From the sequence record PQ471516.1: DNA of 64,000 nucleotides. One strand, written 5' to 3'. A program made the position numbers and the translations under genes. Below, piece by piece: positions 38,838-41,639 of the stretch. How positions within the stretch are numbered: position 1 is the first letter of the stretch; the number at the start of each line of letters is the position of its first letter. The notes below the pieces were generated by a model that made no database searches, had not been told where the DNA came from, and worked only from the letters and a program-made list of their open reading frames with translations. Origin of the DNA: Escherichia phage Turkey5.

Positions 38838-38868
38838 CTAAATAATATCATACTTTATACGAATATAA
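38838..38868 (+). promoter_or_regulatory. Extended late promoter element CTAAATAATATCATACT...ACGAATATAA
   Basis: Shares an identical 16-nt block TAAATAATATCATACT plus downstream ACGAATATAA with the element upstream of the major capsid gene. Confidence 0.45.
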
Positions 38869-38887
38869 TATATCTATGGAGGATATA

Positions 38888-39733
38888 ATGGCGAATTTAA
38901 AACTACTACAAGAAGCAATTGAAGCTTTCGCAAACGGCGAGCAAGATGTTGCAGATAAAAAAATGCGTAAGTACTTTGTTGAGCAAGCTCAAGAAATTAA
39001 CAAAGAACTAGAAGAAAGCATGGAAGACGAAGAAGAAATTGAAGTCAAGGATGAAGAAAAACTTGATGAAGATTTTGATGTACAACCTGATGCTGGCCTA
39101 AACTCTGAAATCGAATTCGCTCTCGGTGAAGAAGATGAAAGTGCTGAAGCTGAAGTCGAAGAATTTGGTTCTGAAGACGATGGCGAAGTTGAAGTTGGTG
39201 CTGAAGAAGAAGTTGAAGGTGAAGAAGGTGGTGTTCCTTCCGAAGATCAATGGGAATCCATTCAAGATGCTTTCCGTGGCCTACAAGACATGTTTGATGA
39301 AATCGGTGGCGATGTAGACGTTGACCTAGACTCTGAAGAAGAAGTTGAAGGAGATGTTGAAGAATTCGGTGCTGATGGTGAAGAAGCAGAAGACGAATTT
39401 AGTGATGTTCAATTCGGTGAAGAAAAAGTTGGTGAATCTTTCAAACTAAAACCAGTAGCTGGTGTTGATAAGAAAGAAAAAGCTGGTGCTAACACCAAGT
39501 CCCCAGTGGCTGGTCAAGCAAAATCTCCAGTAGCTGGCGTAGAACCAGTTAAATTCGCTAAAGCAACCGAAAAACAGGTTGATTACGATTTTGAGAACGA
39601 AGATGCAATGTCCCATAAAGACGAAGATCTAGGTAAAAATGCTCGTGGTGAAATGAAAGACGTTAAAGCACCTAAAGTTGCCGCTGCTGCGAAAAGTCGC
39701 TCAGTACTACCAAAATCTCAACCAAAAATCTAA
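38888..39733 (+). CDS. Highly acidic prohead core/scaffold-associated protein
   Basis: Glu/Asp-rich low complexity (EEEIEVKDEEKLDEDFD, EEEVEGEEGG); position between portal and protease; start at ATG 38888 with RBS GGAGG. Confidence 0.55.
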   Translation: MANLKLLQEAIEAFANGEQDVADKKMRKYFVEQAQEINKELEESMEDEEEIEVKDEEKLDEDFDVQPDAGLNSEIEFALGEEDESAEAEVEEFGSEDDGEVEVGAEEEVEGEEGGVPSEDQWESIQDAFRGLQDMFDEIGGDVDVDLDSEEEVEGDVEEFGADGEEAEDEFSDVQFGEEKVGESFKLKPVAGVDKKEKAGANTKSPVAGQAKSPVAGVEPVKFAKATEKQVDYDFENEDAMSHKDEDLGKNARGEMKDVKAPKVAAAAKSRSVLPKSQPKI

Positions 39734-39764
39734 CAATAAATAACAGAAAGAAGGAGATCATTAT

Positions 39765-40385
39765 ATGAGTATGATTCGTGAATGGTCTTCATTCAATGAT
39801 TCTAATATTGTTCTGGAACATCGTGATAACGGATTTGGCGGTCGTGATTGCTACCTACGTGGTATTGCAATTCAGGCCGACCAAAGAAACTTGAACGAGA
39901 GAATTTACCCTTTATCTGAAATTACGAAGGCCGTAAATAATATGGGTCAACGTTTAGCTAAAGGGGAAAGCATTCTAGTAGAATGTGACCATCCAGAAAC
40001 ATTAACCATTAACCTAGACCGTGTAGCTGCAATGATTACAAAAGTCTGGATGGAAGGTGCTAATGGTATGGCAGAAATCAAATTGCTTGATACTGCTCAT
40101 GGTCAAAATATTCGTAAAATGCTAGAGGCTGGCGTAAAACTTGGTGTCAGTTCACGCGGTTCCGGTAACGTAGATTATAATGGAATAGTTTCTGATTTTG
40201 AAATTATCACTATCGATATTGTTGCTCAACCTAGTGCTCCAGAGGCATACCCAACTGCGGTATTTGAATCTCTAATGAGCAAGTACGGATCACCTTGTAA
40301 TAGTCCTAAAAAAATCAATGAATCTAAAACAGTAAATAATGTAGATTCTGAAATTTACGATTTTTTCAAGAAATTAAAAGGTTAA
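39765..40385 (+). CDS. gp21: Prohead core protease gp21
   Basis: T4 gp21-like motifs RIYP, ECDHPET, KLGVSSRGSG; RBS AAGGAGA. Confidence 0.8.
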   Translation: MSMIREWSSFNDSNIVLEHRDNGFGGRDCYLRGIAIQADQRNLNERIYPLSEITKAVNNMGQRLAKGESILVECDHPETLTINLDRVAAMITKVWMEGANGMAEIKLLDTAHGQNIRKMLEAGVKLGVSSRGSGNVDYNGIVSDFEIITIDIVAQPSAPEAYPTAVFESLMSKYGSPCNSPKKINESKTVNNVDSEIYDFFKKLKG

Positions 40386-40396
40386 CATTTTAAAAA

Positions 40397-40404
40397 TATA
40401 AATA
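40397..40404 (+). promoter_or_regulatory. T4-type late promoter TATAAATA
   Basis: Perfect TATAAATA ~50 nt upstream of scaffold gene ATG, followed by leader hairpin. Confidence 0.5.
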
Positions 40405-40452
40405 TCTGTATGTTGAAGTACAGATATTTCAGTACTTAAAGGAGAGAACAGG

Positions 40453-41568
40453 ATGTCTAAATTAGAAAAGCTTCTAAAAGAATCATCACTTTCTGATGAG
40501 GCAAAACAGCTAATTCAGGAAGCATGGAATGAAGAAAAAAATACACTTGCCGCAGAAATGCGTGAAGAAATGAAAGGTCGATACAAACAAGATTTGTCCG
40601 AGCTAACCGAAGGTCTAAATACTATGGTTACTCAAGTTATCGCTGAAGAAATGGGTGCAGTATATGATGAGAAAAAACGTCTTGTAGAAGACCGTGTAAC
40701 TCTTCGTAAAACCCTAGGTAATTTCTCTCAGTTCGCAAACTCTGTATTGGCTGAAGAAGTCAAACAACTACGTAAAGAACGTAAACATCTAAGAGAAAGT
40801 ATGGGCAAATTTGTTAATTTCTCAAACGGTATCTTAGCTGAAGAACTAAAAGAATTCCACGTGGAAAAACGTCAACTAGTAGAAACTCGCGTAAAACTAC
40901 TTGCTGAAGGTTCCCGTCAAATTGCTGAAGCACGTAACAACTTCATCAAACGTACCTCTGAAAGTGCTGCTAAATACATTGCAGAAACAACTCAGAAGAA
41001 CCTATACGCTTTGAAACAAGATCTTGTTGAAGCAAAACAAAATATGTTTGGTCGTAAAATTTTCGAAGCATTTGCTCAAGAATTCCATATCAAACAATTT
41101 AACGAGAATTCACTTCTACGTTCCCTAACTGAATCAGTTAAGTCTAAAGAAGACGAAATTGCTCAAGTTAAATCTGAACTAAATGAATCTGTTGCTGCTG
41201 TTAAAGCTGCGAAAACCAAACTCCGTATTATGGAAGATACTCAAACCCGTAATGCAATTATGTCCGAGTTGGTGAAGCCACTAAATACTCAGCAAAAACA
41301 AATTATGGAATCCCTTCTAGCTACTTCTCCTACAGAAAAGCTTAAAGACGATTTCAGCAAGTACCATAAGTCAGTACTTAACGGTACTAAAGTAAATGAA
41401 TCTGCTACCTCTCGTCAAGCAGTTCAGTCTTCAGCTAAGAAAACTCTTGCCGAAGGTAAAGTAATCACTGGCAACCGTCAGGCTATTGTTGAAAGCGAAG
41501 AAATGACCGCTGACGATATGGCATTCCTAAAAGAACTCGATGTTCTTTCTGGTATCAATAAAAAATAA
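40453..41568 (+). CDS. gp22: Prohead scaffolding protein gp22-like
   Basis: 371 aa, charged coiled-coil-type sequence; between protease and major capsid genes; RBS AAAGGAGAG. Confidence 0.65.
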   Translation: MSKLEKLLKESSLSDEAKQLIQEAWNEEKNTLAAEMREEMKGRYKQDLSELTEGLNTMVTQVIAEEMGAVYDEKKRLVEDRVTLRKTLGNFSQFANSVLAEEVKQLRKERKHLRESMGKFVNFSNGILAEELKEFHVEKRQLVETRVKLLAEGSRQIAEARNNFIKRTSESAAKYIAETTQKNLYALKQDLVEAKQNMFGRKIFEAFAQEFHIKQFNENSLLRSLTESVKSKEDEIAQVKSELNESVAAVKAAKTKLRIMEDTQTRNAIMSELVKPLNTQQKQIMESLLATSPTEKLKDDFSKYHKSVLNGTKVNESATSRQAVQSSAKKTLAEGKVITGNRQAIVESEEMTADDMAFLKELDVLSGINKK

Positions 41569-41606
41569 ACATTTTAAAGCATTTTAATAATCAATCTTTT
41601 CAGTTC

Positions 41607-41639
41607 TATAAATAATATCATACTGAAAAACGAATATAA
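41607..41639 (+). promoter_or_regulatory. Extended late promoter TATAAATAATATCATACT...ACGAATATAA
   Basis: Perfect TATAAATA plus conserved downstream blocks, ~50 nt before capsid gene ATG. Confidence 0.55.

Follow-up and report, generated by a model that had tools for sequence, protein, structure and literature searches.

A predicted late promoter and leader shared by the acidic head-protein and major capsid genes of a RaK2-like jumbo phage

Late promoters of phage T4 consist of an 8-bp A/T box at the -10 position, without a -35 element, and of an AT-rich segment that runs from the box to the start, and they serve structural genes. They are read by gp55 together with gp33 and the gp45 clamp, and gp55 contacts only the 8-bp box TATAAATA at -13 to -6, the downstream segment being merely AT-rich (PMC2988020). 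Closer relatives of the DNA studied here are phages CBB and GAP32, in which ATAAATA followed by A/T-rich sequence has already been predicted as a late promoter, with CTAAATA variants in the CBB list (PMC5259590, Table S7); homologues of gp33 and gp45 were reported as not found in CBB (PMC5259590). Here, we analyse a 64,000-nucleotide stretch of Escherichia phage Turkey5 (PQ471516.1; referred to throughout as the window), in which the genes for an acidic head protein and for the major capsid protein (MCP) are preceded by two closely similar copies of such a promoter. The window belongs to the genus Asteriusvirus and is 99% identical to Escherichia phage vB_EcoM_JNE01 (JNE01) and 84-91% identical to other Asteriusvirus genomes, for example 121Q, PBECO4 and phAPEC6, all of which are RaK2-like jumbo myoviruses. 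It represents the same clade as CBB and GAP32, with the same box and the same association with structural genes. The earlier work on these phages gave a 14-nt MEME motif only, and the pairwise identity of the MCP and acidic-gene promoters, their common start region and the homology of the whole spacers are not described there (PMC5259590).

The two copies share an exact 16-mer, TAAATAATATCATACT, located on the + strand at 38839-38854 (copy 1) and 41609-41624 (copy 2), which is followed after 4 nt (TTAT) or 5 nt (GAAAA) by the 10-mer ACGAATATAA at 38859-38868 and 41630-41639. This arrangement was first noticed in an initial annotation made from the sequence alone, and our exact matches at both sites confirm it, except that the start coordinates given then include one or two flanking bases. 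Both 16-mers are intergenic and lie 49 nt (copy 1) and 51 nt (copy 2) from the start codon. The similarity is considerably longer than the roughly 32 nt first proposed, since the two entire intergenic regions (38788-38887 and 41569-41659) can be aligned over about 90-95 nt with 82% column identity. The aligned blocks follow one another in the same order, namely TTTTAAAGC, TTTTCAGT, the 16-mer, the 10-mer, a ribosome-binding site and the ATG. Within this homology of about 90 nt there is also what appears to be left of the terminator upstream of the acidic gene.

Each copy begins with a late promoter box. In copy 2 this is an exact match to TATAAATA (41607-41614, +). Copy 1 carries CTAAATA (38838-38844, +), a variant of ATAAATA/TATAAATA which, read as the 8-mer aCTAAATA, matches TATAAATA at six of eight positions. 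Its assignment is based on the sequence itself, on the presence of CTAAATA in the CBB list and on the orthologous sites, which read ATAAATA or TATAAATA in Munch, Hallingskeid, CBB, GAP32, Yen9-04 and Serratia BF. The box of copy 1 therefore departs from the consensus, and only copy 2 has it in full. An AGTACT palindrome within TTCAGTACT (38834-38839) overlaps the first bases of the copy 1 box and coincides with the C that stands there instead of A.

Genome-wide counts were made on the whole genome of JNE01 (355,583 bp). ATAAATA is depleted there, with only 52 copies on the two strands together, and its TAAATA core has 182 copies compared to 742 expected. Of the 52 copies, 37 fall in intergenic DNA, which makes up 9% of the genome, typically 24-60 nt before start codons. 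A sequence logo of 35 late promoters places the information in the 7-bp box, in a 'not G' preference at the next base and in an A-rich patch 5-7 nt after the box, together with a weak T-richness upstream and no conserved -35 element. The working consensus departs from that of T4: it reads ATAAATA, the first T being optional and a C being tolerated. The window also encodes a gp55-like late sigma factor (27349-28239, +) that matches phrog_12791, 'sigma factor for late transcription' (E 1e-150), and, over residues 158-279, phrog_234, 'late sigma transcription factor' (E 1e-16). Recognition of the (A/C)TAAATA boxes is expected to be the task of this protein. It is 296 residues long, and about 150 N-terminal residues lie outside the match to the T4-type profile. 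Considering the box, the AT-rich spacer without a -35 element and the encoded gp55-family sigma factor together, both sites are predicted to be late promoters of the T4 type, in agreement with the initial annotation. A sigma-70 promoter (TTGACA-N16-18-TATAAT) was considered and discarded, as there is no + strand match at either site.

If the geometry of T4 applies, the 16-mer covers the box from -11 to -6, an AT-rich stretch from -5 to -1 that ends in C and reads ATATC in both copies, and the first five transcribed nucleotides, +1 to +5 (ATACT). Transcription is predicted to start at the A of CATAC, that is at A38850 in copy 1 and A41620 in copy 2, because the T4 box occupies -13 to -6 and because an A is found at position 12, counted from the first A of the box, in 26 of the 35 late promoters of the genome. 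At both predicted starts a pyrimidine at -1 is followed by a purine at +1, a context that favours initiation. The resulting leaders would be 38 nt long for the acidic-gene mRNA (38850-38887, +), with ACGAATATAA and the Shine-Dalgarno sequence GGAGG (38878-38882), and 40 nt long for the MCP mRNA (41620-41659, +), with ACGAATATAA and the ribosome-binding region AAGGAGATATACA (41647-41659), which includes AAGGAG. In both, ACGAATATAA would sit at about +10/+11 to +19/+20. Neither leader folds better than shuffled sequences do: the acidic-gene leader has little structure (-4.4 kcal/mol, z -0.5) and the MCP leader is unstructured (-1.8 kcal/mol, z +0.35). A structured leader or riboswitch was rejected in view of these shuffle-level folds and the absence of any Rfam match in the window.

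We next consider how far the sequence downstream of the box is peculiar to this pair. The genome-wide motif search proposed with the initial annotation finds the 16-mer, and even TAAATAANNNCATAC, at these two genes only, and allowing up to two mismatches adds a single further site, before a virion-protein gene. The other late promoters have only ATAAATA and an A-rich start in common, and the logo of 35 shows no extension beyond that A-rich start, which excludes a general extended consensus of which the pair would simply be the best match. In a set of 1378 pairs drawn from the candidate late promoters, all 10 nt downstream of the box are identical in this pair and in one pair of tandem paralogs, and the next-best pair reaches 8/10. 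Within the genome, both the scan and the promoter pairs bear out the idea that what extends past the 7-8 bp box is confined to this pair.

Weaker forms of the extension do exist. The graded family TAAATAATATCA has five copies against 0.44 expected, all before late genes: one at each of the two genes discussed here, two in tandem before a virion-protein gene (54091 and 54154, -) and one before an Rz-like spanin gene. The tandem promoters (region 54055-54200, -) read GATAAATAATATCATAGA (54154-54169) and GATAAATAATATCAAGC (about 54091-54106) and precede the virion-protein gene at 53455-54054 (phrog_9326); an 87-residue open reading frame (ORF) at 54114-54377 overlaps them and is probably no gene, as it is unannotated in JNE01. 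A second partial form, TAAATAA-N4-ATAC, is found at three promoters only, those of the tail sheath, the acidic protein and the MCP, and exactly the same three leaders contain ACGAATAT, at +3, +10 and +11, respectively, with about 0.06 occurrences expected across all late leaders as estimated from base composition. The tail-tube promoter reads ATAAATAATATAAAG and has none of the extension features. The view that the element is specific to the highest-expressed late genes needs revision: part of it is present at the sheath gene, and none of it at the tail-tube gene. In JNE01 (79326-79385), the promoter and leader of the tail sheath read AATCCTCCA-ATAAATAA-NNNt followed by ATACGAATAT(A)TTCGAATA...TTTTTGGAGGA; the leader opens with a small palindrome, CGAATATTCG, and across Asteriusvirus, RaK2, GAP32, Munch and Xanthomonas phages the region is 83-87% conserved.

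In an AT-rich window of this kind, one exact 16-mer repeat by itself is unremarkable: sequences of 64 kb simulated with a first-order Markov model contain 1.3 repeated 16-mers on average. It is the context that makes the pair non-random. When the flanks were compared with 2000 shuffles, the similarity of the upstream flank was matched by 1/2000 and that of the leader by 0/2000. Nearly all Asteriusvirus records listed have the element at two places, and one record, SD-1_S14, has it at one place. A dispersed repeat or mobile element was rejected as its source, since there are two places per genome and always the same two spacers.

Conservation within the genus was measured for the window against 121Q, Ecwhy_1 and A4, to which the spacer at site 1 is 93, 97 and 90% identical and the spacer at site 2 is 97, 96 and 94% identical. 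Third codon positions of the flanking genes reach 66-86% (64-95% over all measured segments), two promoter-less spacers 63-84% and the protease-scaffold spacer 93-97%. In addition, identity over the whole MCP intergenic region is 96-98% for about 35 genomes of Asteriusvirus. These comparisons support the interpretation that the extension is under purifying selection. The ACGAATATAA block behaves differently. In the acidic-gene leader of four Asteriusvirus genomes, six of seven substitutions fall inside it, and it reads ACGAATGTAA in 121Q, ATGAATGTAA in Ecwhy_1 and AGGAATTAAA in A4; outside the genus it is absent from both leaders. Given this variation within the genus and its absence elsewhere, the exact identity of ACGAATATAA in the window is lineage-specific, with no sign of constraint at the acidic gene, where it is the least conserved part of the leader.

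The upstream halves of the two spacers tell a related story. Just upstream of the acidic-gene promoter lies a weak hairpin with a T-run (38790-38832, +; -9.5 kcal/mol, z -1.7), a putative terminator of the portal/orf75 unit, which a consensus terminator scan does not call in the window. Relatives have a hairpin and U-run at the equivalent place, with different stems (-7 to -19 kcal/mol, z -1.9 to -6.7), and in phage Munch it is annotated as a terminator. Judging from this recurrence in every lineage compared, the hairpin and U-run upstream of copy 1 probably act as the terminator for the portal unit. The upstream half of the MCP spacer (41569-41606, +) aligns with this region (TTTTAAAGC..TTTTCAGT) and lacks the stem, with a fold of 0 kcal/mol.

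Beyond the genus, the core TAAATAA-NNN-CATAC precedes both genes in Munch, Hallingskeid, Eneladusvirus, Mimasvirus and Xanthomonas phage XaC1, in which the MCP copy reads TAAATAATATCATACA. Other lineages have extensions of their own that are common to the same two genes. In RaK2 a different one is shared weakly (CATATT / TATATT, with a 1-nt register shift), in Vibrio phage 2.275.O the two sites read TATAAATAGAGTTATATAAAATA and TATAAATAAAGTTATATAAAGTA (the Vibrio-type form AGTTATATAAA), from which 12 other ATAAATA sites in 50 kb differ, and in the metagenomic contig L163 they read CTAAATAACTGTACAAG and CTAAATAAAAGTACAAA. Over six deep lineages, the pairs within a genome agree at 8.5 of 14 positions, compared to 6.3 across genomes, and none of 265 re-pairings reaches the observed sum. 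This co-variation is compatible with selection, gene conversion and a lineage-specific factor alike. Flank similarity outside Asteriusvirus and RaK2 is at background (51-56%). In the 95 nt or so upstream of the MCP gene, no TAAATA box was found in PA5oct or in most IMG/VR relatives at 63-70% MCP identity, many of which have just a short spacer at this position. The gene in front of the protease was located in about half of these loci, and where it was, it usually has an NTAAATA box ahead of it. The box before the head-core operon of such distant contigs is usually GTAAATA, often ggctGTAAATA, and the arrangement suggests that the late-promoter consensus has shifted and that the head genes form one operon.

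The window pair has 10 further bases in common through the predicted start, a conservation that T4 late promoters do not have (PMC2988020). We also compared the MCP promoter with P23 of T4, which is located within gene 22, some 140 nt ahead of gene 23. P23 reads TATAAATA-ctcctg-ATACTGAAGC and the MCP promoter here TATAAATA-atatc-ATACTGAAAAAC, and the two have the 8-mer ATACTGAA in common at the predicted start, with a 1-nt offset. Deep conservation with T4 was nevertheless rejected, and the likeness of the P23 start TATAAATActcctgATACTGAAGC to ATACTGAAAAAC is treated as coincidence. A scan of viral contigs for ATAAATA-N4-7-ATACTGAA returned at least 120 loci, mostly in unrelated contigs, and in T4-like contigs the matches lie about 2 kb from the capsid gene.

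Taking these results together, we consider it fairly probable that the two sites represent a duplicated promoter-leader cassette that has been kept alike by selection, gene conversion or both, each copy forming a complete late expression cassette. The gp55-like sigma factor with the host RNA polymerase would recognise the -10-type box (CTAAATA at 38838-38844, TATAAATA at 41607-41614), the AT-rich 5 nt after it would melt, and transcription would begin at the A of CATAC (38850 and 41620). The remaining common sequence, including ACGAATATAA, would then be the beginning of an A/U-rich, unstructured leader of 38-40 nt that ends in a strong Shine-Dalgarno sequence. As to its origin, the region that controls the head-core operon (genes for the acidic protein, protease, scaffold and MCP) may have been copied to a position before the capsid gene, comprising the terminator remnant, promoter, start site, leader and ribosome-binding site, and thereby have provided an extra late promoter. 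Selection for the same strong initiation region, gene conversion or both could have maintained the likeness afterwards.

Several points weigh against this interpretation. The first base of the copy 1 box is a C, and CTAAATA is far less enriched intergenically than ATAAATA (about 4.5-fold compared to about 25-fold). Conservation alone does not single out the pair, because the protease-scaffold spacer is equally conserved without the motif. Further, the notion that the extension is simply the strongest promoter form explains it incompletely, since not all abundant late genes, the tail-tube gene among them, carry it. About 90 nt of AT-rich DNA could also have become alike by convergence instead of duplication. 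Lastly, our literature search found no mapped transcription starts for Asteriusvirus or RaK2-like phages. The identity of the two copies, their uniqueness in the genome, their conservation and co-variation, the lack of RNA structure and the presence of the sigma factor gene are observations, and the start sites, the promoter strength, the duplication and the cause of the lasting likeness are inferences.

The best-surviving alternative, which we consider possible but rather unlikely, is that the extension (-5 to +5, perhaps with the leader block) is a dedicated DNA recognition element that marks genes for the highest or for co-ordinated late expression, with the N-terminally extended gp55-like sigma factor or a further co-activator as the candidate reader. 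The pair-specificity of the extension within the genome, its co-variation at both genes across lineages and the graded TAAATAATATCA family confined to late genes would all fit such an element, as would a sigma factor of which only residues 158-279 match the T4-type profile and the reported lack of gp33 and gp45 homologues in CBB. However, T4 gp55 contacts only its 8-bp box, 35 other late promoters work without such an extension, the ACGAATATAA block varies freely at the acidic gene, and gene conversion alone could give the co-variation. The initial suggestion of an additional recognition or leader element thus survives in that the extension is pair-specific and is retained or co-varies across genera, whereas CATACT and ACGAATATAA would, by T4 geometry, be the start site and transcribed leader rather than an upstream recognition element. 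A more specific form of this idea, to which we give slightly less credence still, holds that -5 to +5 is a second specificity determinant, read by the enlarged gp55-like sigma factor or a partner and co-evolving at the capsid gene and the head-core operon so that both fire together at a fixed ratio. The initiator of the head genes would in that case differ from lineage to lineage, being CATAC in the enterobacterial phages, TTATATAAA in the Vibrio phage and GTACAA in contig L163.

Alternatively, the shared element could act on RNA, with an AUAC... 5' end and ACGAAUAU serving as a stability, processing or translation signal of the most-used late messages, which we regard as improbable. In favour of such a signal, TAAATAA-N4-ATAC and ACGAATAT are confined to the sheath, acidic-protein and MCP genes, the sheath leader ATACGAATAT..TCGAATA is kept from Asteriusvirus to RaK2 and GAP32, and the ribosome-binding region of the MCP gene equals that of T7 gene 10. 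On the other hand, there is no significant RNA structure and no Rfam family, ACGAATAT sits at a different distance from the 5' end in each of the three leaders, and the ACGAATATAA block varies most within the acidic-gene leader of the genus and is missing from both leaders in other genera. Finally, it is very improbable that the two copies are identical for neutral reasons, through a recent duplication, gene conversion or chance, with only the generic 7-bp box functional. In favour of this view, isolated repeated 16-mers are expected about once per window, only the JNE01-like lineage has the exact 10-mer in both leaders, and flank similarity is highest in Asteriusvirus and RaK2 only. Against it, both spacers are 90-97% conserved compared to 66-86% at synonymous sites, five further RaK2-like lineages have kept the core at both genes, and the shuffle tests of both flanks speak against chance.

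If the duplicated-cassette interpretation is correct, it provides a testable map of how the most-used late genes of a 350-kb jumbo phage are controlled, from the box and start through the leader to the ribosome-binding site, and it would mean that a second copy of the head-operon promoter came to serve the capsid gene in the RaK2-like clade. Whether start-site sequences tune gp55-type promoters, which in T4 are thought to depend for their definition on the 8-bp box alone, is a question for which the co-varying pairs amount to a natural experiment. In practical terms, the cassette could supply a compact and strong late expression signal for engineering such phages. The general picture of late transcription is left unchanged, and the element itself is of an ordinary kind.

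The end of the MCP leader shows a further likeness to a known system. The MCP initiation region CTTTAAGGAGATATACAATG (41640-41662) matches the T7 gene 10 leader CTTTAAGAAGGAGATATACATATG (T7 22924-22972); AAGGAGATATACA is identical over 13 nt, and CTTTAAG precedes it in both. The gene 10 leader, the strong ribosome-binding site of pET vectors, and the MCP leader both serve a major capsid gene in E. coli, yet T7 is an unrelated phage with a different polymerase and promoter, and the likeness probably represents convergence on an efficient initiation region. The upstream 'epsilon' enhancer of T7 gene 10 is UUAACUUUA; it is only partly matched in the MCP leader (CAUCUUUAA).

The two genes belong to a head module in which the portal gene (36722-38485), a 75-residue ORF (orf75), the acidic-protein gene, the prohead protease gene, the scaffold gene and the MCP gene follow one another, an order that matches the head gene order 20-67-68-21-22-23 of T4. 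The acidic virion or prohead protein gene (38888-39733, +) occupies the slot of T4 gene 68 and encodes 281 residues with 31% D+E and an isoelectric point of 4.05; its profile match is to phrog_15696, virion structural protein. Translation most likely starts at ATG 38888 (GGAGGATATAATG), as in the annotation of relatives, rather than at 38876. The protein has also been found in virions of PA5oct, and mass spectrometry detected it in virions of phAPEC6 (PMC7247149) and CBB (PMC5259590). The initial annotation spoke of the two most abundant head proteins, which is only half verified, in that the data from relatives attest the presence of the acidic protein in virions and not its abundance. The gp23-like MCP gene (41660-42835, +) was assigned through phrog_138 and the annotation of 121Q. 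Pfam gave no match for the sigma factor, the acidic protein, orf75 or the scaffold.

A third late promoter of the head module is predicted before the scaffold gene (40397-40429, +), with TATAAATA at 40397-40404 overlapped by a 12-bp hairpin. This hairpin, ATATCTGTA...TACAGATAT, lies in the protease-scaffold spacer (40386-40452; -13.8 kcal/mol, z -2.5) and could form only in read-through transcripts from the acidic-gene promoter, because its 5' arm is partly upstream of the predicted start. The head transcription unit is closed by a predicted strong bidirectional terminator (42881-42905), with a stem of 10-11 bp, six GC pairs and a following T-run.

The AGTACT palindrome mentioned above is over-represented far beyond this locus, with 1000 copies in the JNE01 genome against 120 expected and 127 in the window against 21.5 (for example at 38834, 40431 and 41373). 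A fuller palindrome, CAGTACTG, has 233 copies in the genome against 4 expected and 32 in the window against 0.74, and TTCAGTACTGAA has 17 in the genome against 0.04. AGTACT sites are Poisson-spaced (about 355 bp), occur in all three reading frames and exceed synonymous-codon shuffles 3.3-fold, CAGTACTG doing so 9-fold; an AGTACT excess is also present in 121Q, RaK2 and other relatives. Only about 3% of the sites abut a -10-like element, although early-type promoters often read TTGACA..TTCAGTACTG-TATAAT. The motif, on which we found no literature, might act at the level of DNA, for example as a site of modification, nicking or binding. Three other hexamers, GGTACC, CGTACG and AGCGCT, have zero copies in JNE01 (39 expected each), which suggests restriction-site avoidance.

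Elsewhere in the window, 532 nt without an ORF (31924-32455) separate an endonuclease VII-like gene from a 60-residue ORF; this stretch has a sigma-70-like promoter, GACACTTTTAAAAAATGTGCTATAATG, and no Rfam match, and could be a non-coding RNA or a decayed gene. A 279-nt spacer (59644-59922) contains three promoter-like repeats (..TGATATAATG(A/T)AGT(T/A)TGT..), each followed by a hairpin, which belong to a family GACA-N-TG-TATAATG that also occurs at 4427, 32021, 50606 and 54180. Near-identical bidirectional terminators, AAAAGGAGAGCA..TGCTCTCCTTTT, are located at three convergent gene junctions (1041-1073, 6779-6812 and 52716-52761).

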